Positions 1-51,098 of a stretch of DNA of 64,000 nucleotides are shown piece by piece. The stretch lies in NCBI RefSeq assembly GCF_054482525.1, contig NZ_CM137006.1; one strand, written 5' to 3'. The notes under the pieces are model-generated. The model saw nothing but the letters and a program-made list of their open reading frames with translations, did not search any database and was not told the DNA's origin. Positions within the stretch are counted from its first letter, which is position 1. Every line of letters begins with the position of its first letter. Made by a program: the position numbers and the translations under genes.

Positions 1-664
1 TAATTAATAAATGCCCATCGTTCTCAAACGAAATCCATCCCTGATCGAATAGAATATCAATATGCGCAGCCAATATAATTCCATTAAAAGGATCAAGCCG
101 TTCATTCCCATTCTCGCAGGCAGCCCACGGCTTTATATGGCTGGTACGCAGTAAAGGTGCAAACGTCGTTCCCGTAACAGGACATGCCGGATACAACATA
201 AGACAATTTTTCCGAAAGGTACCTTGCCCCAGCCGTGCCGCAATCAGCTGCTCGCGTACGGTATCTTCAATACTTTTATCCTGCTGAATAGCAAGACAGT
301 CACGTTGTGCCTGTTCATCTCCAGCAGAAGATATTAACGAAAGAACGCGCTGCTCAATCGCACTGTCTGAAAGCACACTCATTCGCTGATACACACGCTG
401 CGCTGAATGAGAAAGCGCAGCAGGAGCGCCCTGCTCGTCAAGCCAGCCGACACGCACATCACTAAGCCAGGAATCAAAACGGTCACGACTATTTTTCAGA
501 CTATTGTGAAACTCGCTGGCAGTTTTGCCCGCTCCAAATCGAGGATAAAACAAGGCAAAAGCCTCTTTCCATTTCTGAACACCCAGTCCTGCGGGTGGTT
601 GAGATTTTCCGTACTTCGACAAATACCACGCCACTTCAAGCAAATCGTCTTCAGAGCTATTCAA
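1..664 (-). CDS. HNH-nuclease-like protein, 3'-partial (C-terminus lies beyond the window start); start codon unresolved
   Basis: Minus-strand frame is open from 691 down to position 1 with no stop. Translation ends ...LYPACPVTGTTFAPLLRTSHIKPWAACENGNERLDPFNGIILAAHIDILFDQGWISFENDGHLLI, a His-Me finger / HNH-type pattern. First ATG is at 382; possible TTG/GTG starts at 664, 643, 634. Absent from the ORF track because it runs off the window. Confidence 0.5.
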   Translation of the reverse strand, partial: MNSSEDDLLEVAWYLSKYGKSQPPAGLGVQKWKEAFALFYPRFGAGKTASEFHNSLKNSRDRFDSWLSDVRVGWLDEQGAPAALSHSAQRVYQRMSVLSDSAIEQRVLSLISSAGDEQAQRDCLAIQQDKSIEDTVREQLIAARLGQGTFRKNCLMLYPACPVTGTTFAPLLRTSHIKPWAACENGNERLDPFNGIILAAHIDILFDQGWISFENDGHLLI

Positions 665-964
665 TATTACGTCCTGTTTTTGCAGAGTAAATTATCACCA
701 GATTATATCTGAAAAGATCGTTTACTAAACTGATCTGCTTACCTGCAAAACGGTACTGCAAACGCTAATACTCAGAACCATTAAGAGGAACAAGCAGGTG
801 CATTCCGCTGCCATCGGTCAGTTTGTATTGCTTATCCCCTGCCTCTAGGTACAAGCATTTTCGAAACGGAAATACCATTATCTGTTGGTAGATGTACGTT
901 GAAGTTGGTTCACCTGGAGAGAGTTAATATAGCGGGAAAGGTAGGTAAATACTGGATTTCAGGT

Positions 965-990
965 ATAAAAAAAGACCTCAGTTGAGGTCT
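965..990 (-). terminator. rho-independent terminator downstream of leuX
   Basis: Inverted repeat agacctca/gttgaggtct followed on the minus strand by a T-run (plus-strand A7). Confidence 0.6.
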
Positions 991-1003
991 ATTTACATAC
1001 TTT

Positions 1004-1088
1004 TGGTGCCGAAGGCCGGACTCGAACCGGCACGTATTTCTACGGTTGATTTTGAATCAACTGCGTCTACCGATTTCGCCACTTCGGC
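1004..1088 (-). tRNA. leuX: tRNA-Leu (anticodon CAA)
   Basis: 85-nt reverse complement reads GCCGAAGTGGCGAAATCGGTAGACGCAGTTGATTCAAAATCAACCGTAGAAATACGTGCCGGTTCGAGTCCGGCCTTCGGCACCA, with CAA anticodon and encoded CCA end. Confidence 0.96.
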
Positions 1089-30108: not shown

Positions 30109-30180
30109 ACTTTACCCATTGCTGAATGCACGGGTAAAGTTAGGCTCAAATAATTAAACAACACGTTACGGGACAACAGG

Positions 30181-31128
30181 ATGCAAAATCGGCTGACCAT
30201 CAAAGACATCGCGCGCTTAAGCGGCGTGGGGAAATCTACGGTTTCCCGGGTGCTGAATAACGAAAGCGGCGTGAGCCAGCGCACGCGCGAGCGTGTTGAA
30301 GCAGTGATGAATCAGCATGGATTTTCCCCTTCCCGCTCTGCGCGCGCTATGCGTGGGCAAAGCGATAAAGTGGTCGCCATCATTGTGACCCGTCTGGATT
30401 CGTTGTCAGAAAATCTCGCCGTTCAAACCATGCTGCCAGCGTTCTATGAACAAGGTTACGATCCAATCATGATGGAAAGTCAGTTTTCCCCACAATTAGT
30501 TGCCGAACATTTGGGGGTGCTGAAACGGCGTAATATCGACGGCGTAGTGCTGTTCGGTTTTACCGGCATAACAGAAGAAATGATAGCCCACTGGCAGTCA
30601 TCGCTGGTTCTGCTGGCGCGTGACGCAAAAGGCTTTGCTTCGGTCTGTTATGACGACGAAGGGGCAATCAAGATCCTGATGCAACGGCTGTATGACCAGG
30701 GGCATCGTAATATCAGTTATCTCGGCGTGCCGCATAGTGACGTGACGACCGGTAAGCGACGTCACGAAGCCTACCTGGCGTTCTGCAAAGCGCATAAACT
30801 GCATCCCGTTGCCGCTCTGCCAGGCCTTGCTATGAAGCAAGGCTATGAGAACGTAGCAAAAGTGATTACGCCTGAAACTACCGCGTTACTGTGCGCAACC
30901 GACACGCTGGCACTTGGTGCAAGTAAATACCTGCAAGAGCAACGCATCGACACCTTGCAACTGGCGAGCGTCGGTAATACACCGTTAATGAAATTCCTCC
31001 ATCCGGAGATCGTCACCGTAGATCCCGGTTACGCCGAAGCTGGACGCCAGGCGGCCTGCCAGTTGATCGCGCAGGTAACCGGGCGCAGCGAACCGCAACA
31101 AATCATCATCCCCGCCACCCTGTCCTGA
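30181..31128 (+). CDS. treR: trehalose operon repressor (LacI family)
   Basis: 315 aa; HTH LTIKDIARLSGVGKSTVSRVLN. Confidence 0.95.
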   Translation: MQNRLTIKDIARLSGVGKSTVSRVLNNESGVSQRTRERVEAVMNQHGFSPSRSARAMRGQSDKVVAIIVTRLDSLSENLAVQTMLPAFYEQGYDPIMMESQFSPQLVAEHLGVLKRRNIDGVVLFGFTGITEEMIAHWQSSLVLLARDAKGFASVCYDDEGAIKILMQRLYDQGHRNISYLGVPHSDVTTGKRRHEAYLAFCKAHKLHPVAALPGLAMKQGYENVAKVITPETTALLCATDTLALGASKYLQEQRIDTLQLASVGNTPLMKFLHPEIVTVDPGYAEAGRQAACQLIAQVTGRSEPQQIIIPATLS

Positions 31129-34766: not shown

Positions 34767-36905
34767 ATGACACCGCATGTGATGAAACGAGACGGCTGCA
34801 AAGTGCCGTTTAAATCAGAGCGCATCAAAGAAGCGATTCTGCGTGCAGCTAAAGCAGCGGAAGTCGATGATGCCGATTATTGCGCCACTGTTGCTGCGGT
34901 TGTCAGCGAGCAGATGCAGGGCCGCAACCAGGTGGATATCAATGAGATCCAGACCGCAGTTGAAAACCAGCTGATGTCGGGTCCATACAAACAACTGGCT
35001 CGTGCTTACATCGAGTACCGTCACGATCGCGACATTGAACGTGAAAAACGCGGTCGCCTGAACCAGGAGATCCGTGGTCTGGTCGAGCAGACCAACTCCT
35101 CGTTACTCAACGAAAACGCCAACAAAGACAGCAAGGTGATTCCAACCCAGCGCGATCTGCTGGCCGGGATCGTGGCTAAACACTATGCACGCCAGCACCT
35201 GCTGCCGCGTGACGTGGTGCAGGCACATGAACGTGGTGATATTCACTATCACGATCTCGATTACTCGCCGTTCTTCCCGATGTTCAACTGCATGTTGATC
35301 GACCTGAAAGGCATGCTGACCCAGGGCTTTAAAATGGGGAACGCCGAGATTGAACCGCCGAAGTCGATCTCTACGGCAACCGCTGTAACTGCGCAGATTA
35401 TTGCTCAGGTCGCCAGCCATATTTATGGCGGCACCACCATTAACCGTATCGATGAAGTGCTGGCACCGTTTGTCACCGCCAGCTACAACAAACATCGCAA
35501 GACCGCAGAAGAGTGGAACATCCCGGACGCCGAAGGCTACGCTAACTCTCGTACCATCAAAGAGTGCTACGATGCCTTCCAGTCGCTGGAGTACGAAGTA
35601 AACACCCTGCACACCGCCAACGGTCAAACACCGTTTGTGACCTTTGGTTTTGGTCTGGGCACCAGCTGGGAATCGCGCCTGATTCAGGAATCTATCCTGC
35701 GTAATCGTATCGCAGGCCTCGGTAAAAACCGTAAAACTGCGGTGTTCCCGAAACTGGTGTTTGCGATTCGCGATGGCCTGAACCATAAAAAAGGCGATCC
35801 GAACTACGACATCAAACAGCTGGCGCTGGAGTGCGCAAGCAAGCGCATGTATCCGGATATCCTGAACTACGATCAGGTAGTGAAAGTCACCGGTTCGTTT
35901 AAAACCCCGATGGGCTGCCGCAGCTTCCTCGGCGTGTGGGAAAATGAAAACGGCGAGCAGATCCACGATGGTCGTAACAACCTCGGCGTGATCAGCCTGA
36001 ACCTGCCGCGTATTGCTCTGGAGGCAAAAGGCGATGAAGCCACCTTCTGGAAGCTGCTGGATGAACGTCTGGTGCTGGCACGTAAGGCGCTGATGACCCG
36101 TATCGCTCGTCTCGAAGGCGTGAAAGCGCGCGTGGCCCCGATCCTCTATATGGAAGGTGCTTGTGGCGTGCGTCTCAATGCTGACGATGATGTTTCTGAA
36201 ATCTTCAAAAACGGTCGTGCGTCTATTTCGCTGGGTTACATCGGCATCCACGAAACCATTAACGCGCTGTTCGGCGGCGAGCATGTTTACGACAACGAGC
36301 AGCTTCGCGCGAAAGGTATCGCGATTGTTGAACGTCTGCGTCAGGCGGTGGATCAGTGGAAAGAAGAAACGGGTTATGGTTTCAGTCTCTACAGCACGCC
36401 AAGTGAAAACCTGTGCGACCGCTTCTGCCGTCTCGATACCGCTGAGTTTGGCGTGGTGCCGGGCGTGACCGATAAAGGTTACTACACCAACAGTTTCCAC
36501 CTTGATGTGGAGAAAAAGGTGAACCCGTATGACAAGATCGACTTTGAAGCGCCTTACCCGCCGCTGGCGAACGGTGGTTTCATTTGCTACGGCGAGTATC
36601 CAAACATTCAGCACAACCTGAAGGCGCTGGAAGATGTCTGGGATTACAGCTATCAGCATGTACCGTATTACGGCACCAATACGCCGATCGATGAGTGCTA
36701 CGAGTGTGGCTTTACCGGTGAGTTCGAGTGCACTAGTAAAGGCTTCACTTGCCCGAAATGTGGTAACCATGACGCCTCCCGTGTGTCGGTGACTCGCCGC
36801 GTGTGCGGATATTTAGGTAGCCCGGATGCACGTCCGTTTAACGCTGGTAAGCAGGAAGAAGTTAAGCGCCGCGTTAAACATTTGGGAAATGGGCAGATCG
36901 GTTAA
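34767..36905 (+). CDS. nrdD: anaerobic ribonucleoside-triphosphate reductase
   Basis: 712 aa; C-terminal glycyl-radical motif and zinc-ribbon cysteines. Confidence 0.97.
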   Translation: MTPHVMKRDGCKVPFKSERIKEAILRAAKAAEVDDADYCATVAAVVSEQMQGRNQVDINEIQTAVENQLMSGPYKQLARAYIEYRHDRDIEREKRGRLNQEIRGLVEQTNSSLLNENANKDSKVIPTQRDLLAGIVAKHYARQHLLPRDVVQAHERGDIHYHDLDYSPFFPMFNCMLIDLKGMLTQGFKMGNAEIEPPKSISTATAVTAQIIAQVASHIYGGTTINRIDEVLAPFVTASYNKHRKTAEEWNIPDAEGYANSRTIKECYDAFQSLEYEVNTLHTANGQTPFVTFGFGLGTSWESRLIQESILRNRIAGLGKNRKTAVFPKLVFAIRDGLNHKKGDPNYDIKQLALECASKRMYPDILNYDQVVKVTGSFKTPMGCRSFLGVWENENGEQIHDGRNNLGVISLNLPRIALEAKGDEATFWKLLDERLVLARKALMTRIARLEGVKARVAPILYMEGACGVRLNADDDVSEIFKNGRASISLGYIGIHETINALFGGEHVYDNEQLRAKGIAIVERLRQAVDQWKEETGYGFSLYSTPSENLCDRFCRLDTAEFGVVPGVTDKGYYTNSFHLDVEKKVNPYDKIDFEAPYPPLANGGFICYGEYPNIQHNLKALEDVWDYSYQHVPYYGTNTPIDECYECGFTGEFECTSKGFTCPKCGNHDASRVSVTRRVCGYLGSPDARPFNAGKQEEVKRRVKHLGNGQIG

Positions 36906-36926
36906 TCTTCACTCTGCGCTAAGCAA

Positions 36927-37055
<129 letters not shown>

Positions 37056-37062
37056 CGAAATA

Positions 37063-37527
37063 ATGAATTATCATCAGTACTATCCTGTCGACATCGTCAA
37101 CGGCCCCGGCACTCGCTGCACCCTGTTTGTCTCCGGGTGTGTTCATGAATGCCCCGGTTGCTATAACAAAAGCACCTGGCGGGTAAATTCCGGTCAGCCA
37201 TTTACCAAAGCAATGGAAGACCAGATCATTAACGATCTGAATGACACTCGCATCAAACGCCAGGGGATTTCCCTCTCCGGCGGCGATCCGCTGCATCCGC
37301 AAAACGTGCCGGATATTCTGAAACTGGTACAACGCATCCGCGCCGAATGTCCGGGTAAAGACATTTGGGTGTGGACAGGCTATAAACTCGACGAACTCAA
37401 CGCTGCGCAAATGCAGGTTGTTGATTTGATTAACGTACTGGTCGACGGCAAATTTGTGCAGGATTTAAAAGACCCTTCCCTGATCTGGCGCGGCAGCAGC
37501 AATCAGGTGGTGCATCATTTGCGTTAG
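37063..37527 (+). CDS. nrdG: anaerobic ribonucleotide reductase activating protein (radical SAM)
   Basis: 154 aa; radical-SAM cysteine motif CVHECPGC. Confidence 0.95.
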   Translation: MNYHQYYPVDIVNGPGTRCTLFVSGCVHECPGCYNKSTWRVNSGQPFTKAMEDQIINDLNDTRIKRQGISLSGGDPLHPQNVPDILKLVQRIRAECPGKDIWVWTGYKLDELNAAQMQVVDLINVLVDGKFVQDLKDPSLIWRGSSNQVVHHLR

Positions 37528-37818
37528 TCACTCATCCAGCCGTTTAGTCGCGTCTTCATAAACGGCTGAGTTCTCTCTCTTACCAATAGCTATCACCAAC
37601 ACGAGCAACTCTTTATCGTTAACCTGATAAACCAGGCGATATCCCTGTGTGCGCAGCTTAATTTTGTAGCAGTCCGGTAAATCCCGCAGTTTAGCCGATG
37701 GATTGCGCGGCCTTTTCAGCACATCCTCAAGCTTTTTTTTAAATTGTTCCCGGACTGTCACGCCCAGTTTTTGCCACTCTTTCAGCGCCCGCGGATCAAA
37801 CGCCAGCTCATAGTTCAT
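37528..37818 (-). CDS. RelE/StbE-family type II toxin (mRNA interferase)
   Basis: 96 aa from MNYELAFDPRALKEWQKLG...; closely resembles K-12 RelE (MAYFLDFDERALKEWRKLG...DCYKIKLRSSGYRLVYQV...). The ORF-track entry 37528..37896 over-extends the N-terminus. Confidence 0.8.
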   Translation of the reverse strand: MNYELAFDPRALKEWQKLGVTVREQFKKKLEDVLKRPRNPSAKLRDLPDCYKIKLRTQGYRLVYQVNDKELLVLVIAIGKRENSAVYEDATKRLDE

Positions 37819-38050
37819 CCAGTCGGACCTTAATGGCCTCTTGTGGGTTGGCCAGTCGTTCCCTGACAGTGCGTAACAAGGCTTCTTCACTATCACTGAC
37901 AGTGAGCGTTTTTACCGGCATTCGTCCATTTTCCGCAACGTACTGAAACAGCAGTCGCACTGCTTCAGTAGGCGTGATATTTAATTTTTCCAGCACCGCA
38001 TAAGCCTCATTTTTCAGTTTGTCATCCAGGCGGACGTTAAGTGTGGCCAT
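37808..38050 (-). CDS. RelB/DinJ-family antitoxin
   Basis: 80 aa MATLNVRLDDKLKNEAYAVLEKL... resembling RelB; overlaps the toxin start by 11 nt; GGAGGC RBS upstream. Confidence 0.8.
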   Translation of the reverse strand: MATLNVRLDDKLKNEAYAVLEKLNITPTEAVRLLFQYVAENGRMPVKTLTVSDSEEALLRTVRERLANPQEAIKVRLDEL

Positions 38051-38072
38051 TATGCCTCCGGTAATTATGAAA

Positions 38073-38110
38073 AGTGTAATGCATTATAGCATTACATATG
38101 CATTACATTC
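38073..38110. promoter_or_regulatory. candidate autoregulatory operator of the relBE-like cassette
   Basis: Repeated palindromic motif tgtaatgcattat / agcattacatatgcattacat 25-60 nt upstream of the antitoxin start. Confidence 0.45.
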
Positions 38111-38208
38111 ATTTCTGGAAAACGCCTCGCAAAAATGAGGACGACACGCAGGAATATGCCGTGGTGAAGATAGATATTGCGGTGATTTTACGAAGGGAGA
38201 AGAAAGCG

Positions 38209-38234
38209 TTGGGCGGTAACGTTTCACCGCCCAA
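38209..38234 (-). terminator. putative cybC terminator hairpin
   Basis: ttgggcggt-aacgtttc-accgcccaa just downstream of the cybC stop. Confidence 0.4.
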
Positions 38235-38241
38235 TAAGGAA

Positions 38242-38631
<390 letters not shown>

Positions 38632-38810
38632 TCACTTCCTTTTTTATTTACACTTCATCCTTCACACTGCCTCATCGACGGCTACGCTCATTCGCCCGAG
38701 TCACGTACTGCGAGTACGCTCCCCGGCCCTCATTCACTTTCCGTCTCGATGCAGTGCGAATGATTTTGTGTAATTTTTTAGTTTATAGCGCGGCAGGTCG
38801 CGCCAGTTTT

Positions 38811-40834: not shown

Positions 40835-41630
<796 letters not shown>

Positions 41631-41734
41631 ATCAGCATACTTGTCCTTAGCCTTCTGCAGTGACAGCTGGTAGTACAGCGTGCTTCTGGCCAGCCCTGCA
41701 GCCTTTAACAGGTCAGACTGGCAGTGTCCGCACC

Positions 41735-42265
41735 TCAGGCTCCGGATGACTTTCGTTTTTTCTCCAGCTCCTGGCGCTTTTTTTCCAGGAGATGCTCCTG
41801 CATGGCTTTCAGATATGCATTTTCTGCGCGAAGATAACGCAGCTCATTCTTCATCTCTTCCGGCGTCATGTTTGCCTCGTTTTCATGGGTATCATCAGAA
41901 CGGGTCATGCTTTTCTCCTTCCTGCGCCTGATAAAGGCCTCATTACCAGATTTGCGGTAGCCTTTTATCCAGTTTTTAACCGTGTTGTGGCTGGGAATGT
42001 TAAACCGGGCAGCTACCCGGGGTAGAGACTCAGAATGCCCGAGAGCATAAAGAACCACGCAAAGTTTATCTTCAGGAGAATAGCTACGCTTGTGTCTGCA
42101 ATCCAGTGCCCGAGGACCGTGAAGAAGAAAAAGATTAATCCAGTGTGAGAGGCTGGTGTGAGAAAGTTGAAAGAGTTTTGCCGTAGAAATGATGCCTGCA
42201 TGACCAGCCAGGTAGTGATTTACAGCGGCAAGTTTTACTTCAAATGAATGTTTCATAAACTGCAC
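41735..42265 (-). CDS. IS3-family transposase OrfA (HTH DNA-binding protein)
   Basis: 176 aa with HTH and C-terminal leucine-zipper-like region (LRYLRAENAYLKAMQEHLLEKKRQELEKKRK). Confidence 0.8.
   Translation of the reverse strand: MQFMKHSFEVKLAAVNHYLAGHAGIISTAKLFQLSHTSLSHWINLFLLHGPRALDCRHKRSYSPEDKLCVVLYALGHSESLPRVAARFNIPSHNTVKNWIKGYRKSGNEAFIRRRKEKSMTRSDDTHENEANMTPEEMKNELRYLRAENAYLKAMQEHLLEKKRQELEKKRKSSGA
41777..41785 (-). other. programmed -1 ribosomal frameshift site (A AAA AAG) joining OrfA to OrfB
   Basis: Minus-strand gaaaaaaag heptad near the orfA C-terminus; orfB frame is -1 relative to orfA. Confidence 0.55.
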
Positions 42266-50502: not shown

Positions 50503-50853
50503 TTATTCCACCACCGCCTGCAAACGTAATAACGCCTCTTCCACCACCTCACCCGCAGCCAGACCAATACGCTTTGCCAGCCGGGCGCGTAGATCCATCA
50601 TCCGCACCTGATTCACCAGCACCACGCCGTGCACATCGCCTTCTTCGCAATGTAAAGGAACGCTAAATCCGGCATAACGGGCAAAATTTCCGCCCTGCGT
50701 AATGGGGGCCACCAGCGTCATTCCCAGTTGATTAAAGGCTTGAACGGAGAGCACAAGCGCAGGTCGACCAGCACCTTGCTGTTCATGGCCGCTTGCTGGA
50801 TCAAAGCCAACCAGCACAATGTCTCCCCGTTCAAATTCACTTTTCTTTACCAT
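50503..50853 (-). CDS. chpB: MazF-family endoribonuclease toxin ChpB
   Basis: 116 aa, MVKKSEFERGDIVLVGFDPASGHEQQGAGRPALVLS... Confidence 0.93.
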   Translation of the reverse strand: MVKKSEFERGDIVLVGFDPASGHEQQGAGRPALVLSVQAFNQLGMTLVAPITQGGNFARYAGFSVPLHCEEGDVHGVVLVNQVRMMDLRARLAKRIGLAAGEVVEEALLRLQAVVE

Positions 50854-51098
50854 ATTTCGTCACCCGCAGGGGTGGATTTACCCCAGACATCCTGCTCGCT
50901 AAGTTCCGTGGCGTTCATGTCACACTGTGCCAGCAGTTCATCAAGCGAGTAGCGCCTGGAGATGGGTGTCAGAATCAGTTGATTGTTGCTCACTTGCGCC
51001 TCCACGCTCTGCCCCGGCCGTAAGTTAAGTTCTTTCATCACAACATTAGGAATGACCATACCTGAACTGTTCCCCCATCTTTTTATGGTAATACGCAT
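50847..51098 (-). CDS. chpS: antitoxin ChpS (AbrB/MazE fold)
   Basis: Start MRITIKRWGNSSGMVIP (83 aa); overlaps chpB by 7 nt. Confidence 0.9.
   Translation of the reverse strand: MRITIKRWGNSSGMVIPNVVMKELNLRPGQSVEAQVSNNQLILTPISRRYSLDELLAQCDMNATELSEQDVWGKSTPAGDEIW

Follow-up and report, generated by a model that had tools for sequence, protein, structure and literature searches.

The junction between the anaerobic ribonucleotide reductase operon nrdDG and a convergent relBE toxin-antitoxin (TA) module was analyzed in a 64,000-nucleotide stretch of Escherichia coli DNA (contig NZ_CM137006.1, RefSeq assembly GCF_054482525.1), referred to here as the window. A conserved RNA hairpin, readable in the nrdG sense, was found within the coding sequence of the toxin gene relE, just past the end of nrdG. 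The explanation that is favored, with a probability of roughly 55%, is that an nrdDG terminator is embedded in the 3' end of relE. From the geometry, conservation, covariation, strand bias, codon constraint and synteny observed at this site, we infer that the hairpin terminates or stabilizes the nrdDG mRNA. A preliminary description of the same DNA had claimed that the two genes converge with abutting stop codons, with no terminator or hairpin between them, and that mutual read-through could couple the expression of both operons.

The abutting stop codons were confirmed. The TAG of nrdG (37525-37527) is directly followed by the toxin stop (37528-37530), leaving a spacer of 0 nt both by open reading frame (ORF) coordinates and in the RefSeq annotation of E. 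coli PCN033, to which a 1.8-kb query covering the junction was 100% identical. The gaps of the 12 convergent gene pairs in the window were 0, 3, 32, 45, 53, 56, 61, 78, 89, 99, 160, and 205 nt, and that of nrdG/relE, the smallest, is not unique because only 3 nt separate idnK and ahr. This second near-zero pair is formed by ahr (+, 1248-2267) and idnK (-, 2271-2834). A special status for a gap of exactly 0 nt was ruled out, as the spacers of the orthologues span 0-9 nt. The claim that no terminator lies between the genes is literally true, but solely since no “between” exists, and a candidate terminator sits within the toxin ORF. The claim that no hairpin is present was not upheld, given a perfect 10-bp inverted repeat whose first base lies 10 nt past the nrdG stop.

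This hairpin corresponds to toxin codons 84-94 and, as nrdG-sense RNA, folds with -14.6 kcal/mol (z = -4.36), an energy reached by none of 200 dinucleotide shuffles. The stem of 10 bp, including five G-C pairs, is as stable as is required of an intrinsic terminator, and it is followed by a pyrimidine/T-rich tail. The 12-nt loop exceeds the usual 3-8 nt, a range into which the orthologues of Citrobacter and Enterobacter do fall (4-6 nt), and the window tail AGUUCUCUCUCUU does not reach five U in the eight positions directly past the stem. The hairpin in the window was not flagged by a simple terminator scanner because its loop is longer than 8 nt and T occurs fewer than 5 times among the first 8 bases of the tail; for the same two reasons the E. 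coli copy is not filed here as a canonical intrinsic terminator. A search of Rfam at a permissive threshold returned nothing at the nrdG/relE junction.

Conservation was tested on codon-anchored 78-nt segments from 22 distinct nrdG-linked loci, which are related sequences. In the 14-pair helix named for this purpose, 78.2% of the cells were paired, compared with 29-50% after the partners had been shifted by 1-3 columns. The covariation score was 0.225 against 0.178 in shuffled alignments, and cells with a change on both sides numbered 15 against 5.9; neither observed value was reached by any of 500 shuffles. The same helix was recovered de novo by RNAalifold, with a 9-pair core, three compensatory pairs and G·U intermediates in the series U-A / U·G / C-G and G-C / G·U / A-U. 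Judged by these sequence comparisons, the element is a conserved structured RNA whose compensatory substitutions go beyond the controls, with n = 22 related sequences.

The hairpin was specific to the nrdG context. The mean folding energy of the 32-nt hairpin was -14.5 kcal/mol in the linked loci (n = 22) and -4.6 kcal/mol in unlinked RelE homologues (n = 61; p = 1e-11), and unlinked toxins with identical AVY...KRL residues still lacked it. The 12-nt tail held on average 6.7 T in linked and 4.2 in unlinked loci (p = 2e-8). A strand bias was also detected: the linked loci folded better in the nrdG sense than in the TA sense (-14.5 vs. -11.2 kcal/mol, Wilcoxon p = 9e-5), and G·U pairs, valid in the nrdG sense only, stood to A·C pairs at 36:15 in linked loci, against 99:103 in the unlinked homologues (binomial p = 0.0015). 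The Salmonella hairpin, for example, gave -15.0 in the nrdG sense vs. -6.6 in the TA sense, and that of Kosakonia reached -18.8 in the TA sense. Moreover, codon choice was constrained. Arg93, in the stem core, is encoded by CGG in 86% of the linked toxins, whereas at the five other Arg positions that are conserved in these genes the top codon accounts for 21-39%; Ala85 is encoded by GCC in 89%. These codon comparisons were made within the clade and are free of the phylogeny confound.

In some orthologues the element has the form of an ordinary terminator. In C. amalonaticus, C. farmeri, and E. wuhouensis, a generic scanner rated the nrdG-sense strand of the element as terminator-like, with stems of 12-13 bp, loops of 4-6 nt and the tails CGATTTTTCC, GATTTTTCCC, and GATTTCTCTC. 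The tails in this group can also be given as GATTTTTCC and GATTTCTCTC, and the U-tracts of the flagged orthologues read GAUUUUUCC or GAUUUCUCUC. The Salmonella tail, AAUGUUCUCG, is even poorer in U than that of E. coli. The hairpin is also retained beside nrdG in genomes with a broken toxin gene (E. albertii, E. marmotae, E. coli E69, and O158:H23 with IS100).

The position of the module was compared in a synteny scan with one genome per species, which returned 80 loci, and further loci were added from a protein search. In all 24 loci with an antitoxin at least 80% identical, nrdG was the convergent neighbor, and the stop-to-stop spacer was 0-9 nt in the 19 linked loci with an intact toxin ORF; linkage to nrdG was found in none of 66 distant loci (antitoxin at most 56% identical or undetected). 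By this comparison of gene order, the relE-nrdG adjacency is far from chance. The linked loci from the scan belong to E. coli, E. albertii, Citrobacter amalonaticus, three Enterobacter, three Kosakonia, a soil metagenome-assembled genome, and Enterobacter sp. Bisph1, and the K. pneumoniae locus, from a separate search, is likewise linked. The same layout was present in 10 added lineages, namely Salmonella enterica, its subsp. arizonae, Cronobacter, Trabulsiella, C. farmeri, C. tructae, Kluyvera, K. huaxiensis, E. ludwigii, and E. marmotae, so that at least 10 genera are covered, with Citrobacter represented four times and Klebsiella twice. Frameshifted toxin copies end early, and the toxin ORF of Enterobacter sp. 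Bisph1 lacks the usual stop and runs on (…KRLEWFLAQVMHDLVTAAAPDKHRIF*), overlapping the nrdG 3' coding region on the opposite strand by 63 nt. In Salmonella the orthologue is near-core (more than 2,000 collection blocks), with an antitoxin 84% identical, the convergent layout, a 3-nt spacer, and the hairpin.

The far-side neighbor is cybC in Escherichia only and a PRD/Mga-type regulator elsewhere; since it varies, the conserved unit is specifically the relE-nrdG junction. The pattern favors an ancestral locus that was lost repeatedly, or inheritance that stayed linked to this site, over a recent insertion. A plasmid origin was considered and rejected: in the plasmid records searched, phages being left out, true plasmid homologues were at most 66% identical and not linked to nrdG. 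The plasmid-filed matches (the sole one of at least 99% and the two best of about 73%) are records of 0.55-5.4 Mb, at least two of them chromosome-sized.

Within E. coli, the toxin gene was found in 393 of 5,426 complete genomes, always on the chromosome, and at a single match site in 392 of them; in the remaining genome, IS100 splits the copy. The antitoxin alone was present in about 60 further genomes, e.g., O145:H28 12E115. The majority of E. coli, including K-12 and Nissle, carry instead a 44-nt nrdG-cybC spacer; the TA allele and this K-12-type allele part inside the last nrdG codon (CGT TAG vs. CGA TGA, respectively) and rejoin just before the cybC stop. The K-12-type spacer forms its own hairpin (-19.5 kcal/mol) 4 nt past the nrdG stop, without U-tracts. 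The idea that the 39-bp K-12-type segment is a decayed TA remnant, prompted by a MAFFT alignment to antitoxin codons, was rejected because 553 of 1,000 dinucleotide shuffles attained its local-alignment score of 16. The orphan-antitoxin allele is a 283-bp deletion between two CATCCAG direct repeats that removes both toxin and hairpin; the remaining antitoxin, of 79 aa and ending in ...RLDE*, again abuts the nrdG stop. Independent toxin inactivations were observed by IS100 insertion (O158:H23) and by frameshift (E. coli E69, E. albertii NBRC 107761, and E. marmotae), the antitoxin being intact or retained in all four.

Transcription in the opposite direction was analyzed separately. On the minus strand, from the toxin stop to nrdD, the terminator scan found no terminator-like site. 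A relBE terminator within the nrdG 3' coding region was also considered and discarded, the scan being negative and the folds (z = -1.5 and +0.5) no better than shuffles. Since no intrinsic terminator was found for relBE, the 3' end of nrdG may plausibly be covered by some antisense RNA. In this direction, however, a bicyclomycin-sensitive Rho region has been mapped antisense to nrdG in K-12, at 4460186 (+), with a Rho score of 3.05 and p = 9.8e-6 (PMC7815308, supplementary file 2). The K-12 nrdG gene lies at 4459900-4460364 (-), so this site is about 286 nt into the nrdG antisense. The C/G ratio of the nrdG antisense RNA is 1.2-1.4. As a near-identical nrdG lies downstream of relE here, relBE read-through is probably stopped by Rho. 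In the nrdG sense, the RNA past the hairpin is C-rich, G-poor (C/G 2.1-2.3), and untranslated, and any nrdDG read-through would therefore be a good Rho substrate. A strong internal Rho region (score 6.6, p = 1e-54, aerobic LB medium) was also noted in K-12 near the nrdD 5' end (NC_000913.3, 4462398 (-), equivalent to about window position 35029 (+); PMC7815308, supplementary file 2), which suggests premature Rho termination of uninduced nrdDG.

The mechanism proposed is a compact, old arrangement of the Enterobacteriaceae, in which a chromosomal relB-relE converges on nrdDG with 0-9 nt between the stops. The 3'-end signal of nrdDG would be the stem-loop followed by the T-rich tract, on the strand opposite to the last ~15 codons of the toxin. 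As this signal would lie inside relE, the nrdDG transcripts are predicted to end about 45-55 nt into relE and to overlap the toxin 3' end only. The relBE transcript would pass the toxin stop into the nrdG antisense, where Rho would most likely stop it, and RNA-polymerase collisions may add to relBE termination under nrdDG induction.

Several observations weigh against a terminator at this site. The E. coli hairpin is non-canonical, with a 12-nt loop, an A/T-rich stem interior and a tail that begins with AG and holds about 4 U in its first 8 bases, and no terminator is called by the generic scanner at the hairpin in the window or in Salmonella. In E. coli, both strands fold almost equally well (-13.1 in the nrdG sense vs. 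-12.2 in the TA sense). The K-12 Term-seq lists, from aerobic growth and the K-12 allele, do not include an nrdG 3' end. The pairs with double-sided change (5 of 14) were not above shuffles (4.0), the overall stem-codon entropy was merely borderline lower (p = 0.054), part of the T-richness of the tail is due to the conserved GKRE[KN] residues, and the linked-versus-unlinked tests are not phylogenetically independent because the linked loci form one clade. To judge from its sequence, the E. coli hairpin is the weakest-looking version of the element and, being the least canonical, could allow partial read-through.

A first alternative, in line with the preliminary description, is that no effective terminator exists in either direction. 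The FNR-driven anaerobic transcription of nrdDG would then send antisense RNA over relBE or interfere with its transcription, relBE would do the same to nrdDG, and the two would be coupled. The zero spacer, a weak hairpin missed by the scanner, the lack of an intrinsic relBE terminator in the scan and an mRNA overlap of at least about 45 nt even with a working hairpin all agree with it. It is nevertheless considered unlikely: on the nrdDG side, the premise that nothing stops the polymerase is contradicted by a conserved, covarying and nrdG-sense-biased hairpin with a pyrimidine/T-rich tract, which together occupy the very place where a terminator would be needed, at 10-55 nt from the nrdG stop, while RNA that escaped it would suit Rho, and transcription antisense to nrdG is Rho-terminated in K-12. 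Additionally, the literature on nrdG with TA systems, on an nrdDG terminator and on STM4449/4450 yielded catalogue mentions only, with no paper found on the nrdG-relE junction or a shared terminator and none tying nrdDG to relBE expression. An equally improbable reading is a collision-type overlapping bidirectional terminator, at which the hairpin pauses polymerases from both sides and head-on and trailing collisions release both transcripts. Such a class is known from convergent gene pairs of E. coli (Ju et al., 2019, cited in 10.1101/2022.10.23.513370), and it would suit a convergent-pair hairpin that folds on both strands in E. coli with a good U-tract on neither, as well as the K-12-type nrdG-cybC spacer hairpin, which likewise has no U-tracts. 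Across genera, however, the helix is clearly better in the nrdG sense, as the G·U:A·C counts and the Salmonella energies indicate, the one-sided T-tract fits a unidirectional intrinsic terminator, and relBE polymerases must cross the hairpin to complete the toxin ORF. Moreover, the presumed autorepression of relBE would keep its transcription weak, and collisions work best in highly expressed pairs, according to the same source.

The location of the hairpin inside the toxin ORF, together with its TA-sense folding in E. coli and in Kosakonia, could also be explained if it served the relBE mRNA, by stabilizing its 3' end against exonucleases or by slowing the translation of the toxin, or acted as a DNA-level site, in either case unrelated to nrdDG. 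This is quite improbable, since RelE homologues outside the nrdG context lack the hairpin even when the residues are identical, the favored G·U pairs become A·C mismatches in the TA sense, and the hairpin is kept when the toxin is pseudogenized or split by IS100; lying upstream of the toxin stop, it is also unable to mark the relBE 3' end. Least probable of all is a functionless by-product, with the inverted repeat following from the amino-acid sequence and inheritance in one clade. The relatedness of the linked loci and the unremarkable number of pairs with double-sided change are what such an origin would give, and yet the folding z-score of -4.4, the compensatory changes with G·U intermediates, the codons of Arg93 and Ala85, strongly constrained in comparison with those of other Arg and Ala residues in these genes, and the absence of the helix from unlinked homologues with the same residues speak against it.

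The embedded nrdDG terminator, if correct, would carry a general caution: abutting convergent stops do not mean that a terminator is absent, since the signal can sit in the coding sequence of the neighbor. The relBE module here behaves as a core syntenic locus over at least 10 enteric genera and not as a mobile one, and a suggested reason is a double role of its 3' end, which would also supply the 3'-end signal for nrdDG, an operon that anaerobic DNA synthesis requires. A bolder extension, regarded as doubtful, is that the relE C-terminal codons and the nrdDG terminator form one dual-coded element that has fixed a normally mobile relBE at one chromosomal site all through the history of the Enterobacteriaceae, and that, through the obligatory ~45-55-nt mRNA overlap and head-on polymerases, nrdDG strongly transcribed under FNR control would reduce the output of relBE or cause the relE 3' end to be cleaved, tying RelE activity to the aerobic-anaerobic switch. 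An embedded terminator would also set bounds to any coupling of TA and nrdDG expression. The locus offers a testable case of dual coding, with protein on one strand and RNA structure on the other, for which the K-12-type, orphan-antitoxin, and pseudogenized-toxin alleles are natural controls. Chromosomal relBE modules and terminators inside convergent genes were already known, and the practical impact is modest; the family-wide synteny and the dual coding are the modestly surprising addition.

The proteins of the module were also analyzed. The residues of E. coli RelE that take part in catalysis or contact the ribosome are K52, K54, R61, R81, and Y87. All five positions are conserved in the toxin, with the motifs CYKIKLR, GYRLVY, and GKRE..VY aligned at the same places. 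The naming of the toxin as RelE-like proved right: it is a genuine RelE homologue, aligning over residues 1-94 with the E. coli RelE structures (PDB 4V7K/4FXE; E = 2e-35) and matching the profiles PF05016 (55.9 bits, cutoff 23) and TIGR02385 (29.9 bits, cutoff 27.9). The antitoxin gene precedes the toxin gene in the same operon, overlapping it by 11 nt (37808-37818), and a RelE-family toxin and a RelB/DinJ antitoxin are annotated at the same coordinates in the RefSeq record of PCN033. In every feature that a sequence can reveal, the pair is a RelBE-family type II member. Upstream, a perfect extended -10 element, TGCTATAAT (TATAAT at 38088-38083), was recognized as a putative promoter, within a putative operator palindrome TGTAATGC-TATAAT-GCATTACA (38096-38075, minus strand) that is conserved in the Citrobacter, Enterobacter, and Klebsiella orthologues; a third half-site, GCATTACA, lies at 38100-38107. 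The antitoxin ATG at 38050 is preceded by the Shine-Dalgarno sequence GGAGG. A sigma-70 promoter scan of 36800-38700 gave zero matches; it demands a -35 element and thereby excludes this candidate, which was assigned to the extended -10 type by inspection of the sequence. The NrdG protein encoded on the other side of the junction is identical to that of K-12 (WP_001106233.1).

Table. Features at and around the nrdG-relE junction (window coordinates; a dot marks features without strand).
Feature	Position	Strand	Basis and remarks
nrdD, anaerobic ribonucleoside-triphosphate reductase, first gene of the nrdDG operon	34767..36905	+	ORF; RefSeq annotation of the identical PCN033 sequence
nrdG, activase, 154 aa	37063..37527	+	stop TAG 37525-37527; Fer4_12, E = 1e-56; RefSeq PCN033
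nrdG antisense, path of relBE read-through	37063..37527	-	no intrinsic terminator found; K-12-equivalent Rho region at ~37241
709-bp segment of TA-bearing genomes; K-12-type genomes have an unrelated 39-bp hairpin spacer instead	37524..38232	.	base-level alignment
relE-family toxin gene, 96 aa	37528..37818	-	ATG 37818-37816; stop TGA 37530-37528 (tca on the + strand)
CATCCAG direct repeat, copy 1	37533..37539	.	
Hairpin, arms CAGCCGTTTA (37537-37546) and TAAACGGCTG (37559-37568), 12-nt loop	37537..37568	+	proposed nrdDG terminator stem-loop
Pyrimidine/T-rich tail AGTTCTCTCTCTT (7 T)	37569..37581	+	proposed weak U-tract; complementary to toxin codons K80-S84
CATCCAG direct repeat, copy 2, including the toxin start codon	37816..37822	.	
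relB/dinJ-family antitoxin gene, 80 aa	37808..38050	-	PF04221, 58.6 bits; NF008412 equivalog, 130 bits (cutoff 96)
Putative relBE promoter/operator	38075..38107	-	inspection of the sequence; palindrome also found by scan; predicted function
cybC terminator-like hairpin TTGGGCGGTGAAACGTTACCGCCCAA, then CGCTTTCTTC	38209..38234	-	-18.0 kcal/mol; insulates relBE from cybC
cybC, cytochrome b562, far-side neighbor in Escherichia only	38242..38628	-	ORF; RefSeq PCN033

Other features of the window were recorded. The nrdD-nrdG spacer holds a cluster of repetitive extragenic palindromic (REP) elements at 36892-37043, with three sub-threshold matches, on both strands, to the REP-derived Rfam family naRNA4. 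A second type II TA operon, chpS-chpB (50503-51098), converges on ppa with a 78-nt spacer. A copy of the IS3-family element IS1397 lies between mpl and yjgA (40908-42256), and treR (30178-31128), beside intact treB and treC, is a pseudogene with its N-terminus missing in the identical PCN033 record. The edge of the window (1-1052) carries a tyrosine recombinase/integrase gene (1-781) and a tRNA-Leu (968-1052), likely a genomic-island integration site.

Compared with RelBE of E. coli K-12 (Qin prophage; structures 4V7J/4V7K and 4FXE), the module described here shares the toxin alignment over residues 1-94, the RelB/DinJ antitoxin encoded first, the overlapping genes, and a putative palindromic operator that overlaps the -10 element. 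It differs in being chromosomal-core and syntenic beside nrdG, and not prophage- or plasmid-borne, and in its antitoxin, at most 56% identical to the nrdG-unlinked group that includes the K-12 RelE C-terminus loci. The K-12-type relE lacks the C-terminal hairpin, and the nrdG-linked toxins of E. coli, E. albertii, and Trabulsiella have two extra residues (DE). In Salmonella, the nrdG-linked relBE is very probably STM4449-STM4450, an assignment that we take from the locus-tag order (presumably nrdG = STM4451). STM4451 and STM4452 were not confirmed in PMC3630085. For Salmonella Typhimurium, STM4449-STM4450 is listed among the TA modules of the relBE type (PMC4070546, PMC8708949; also the retracted PMC3868539).

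Rho silencing of antisense and read-through transcripts offers a second comparison, as the bicyclomycin-sensitive region antisense to nrdG in K-12 (PMC7815308) falls in the same nrdG sequence that lies downstream of relE here; those data come from K-12 and not from a TA-bearing strain, and the incoming transcription there is from cybC instead of relBE. With the overlapping bidirectional terminators (Ju et al., 2019; ynaJ-uspE model, 10.1101/2022.10.23.513370), the junction shares a convergent gene pair, a hairpin in a stretch that both transcripts would have to cross, and a poor likeness to classic terminators in E. coli. Compared with that class, the nrdG-relE helix is strand-biased and its T-tract one-sided, which argues for mainly unidirectional use, and the element lies within coding sequence and not in a shared 3' untranslated region. 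Finally, as in a canonical intrinsic terminator, a stable stem-loop is present within 10 nt of the last stop, with a T-rich run after it. The nrdG element is unlike that model in being embedded in a convergent ORF and thus dual-coded, and its E. coli and Salmonella versions depart from it in loop length and U-tract, whereas those of Citrobacter and Enterobacter follow the standard pattern.

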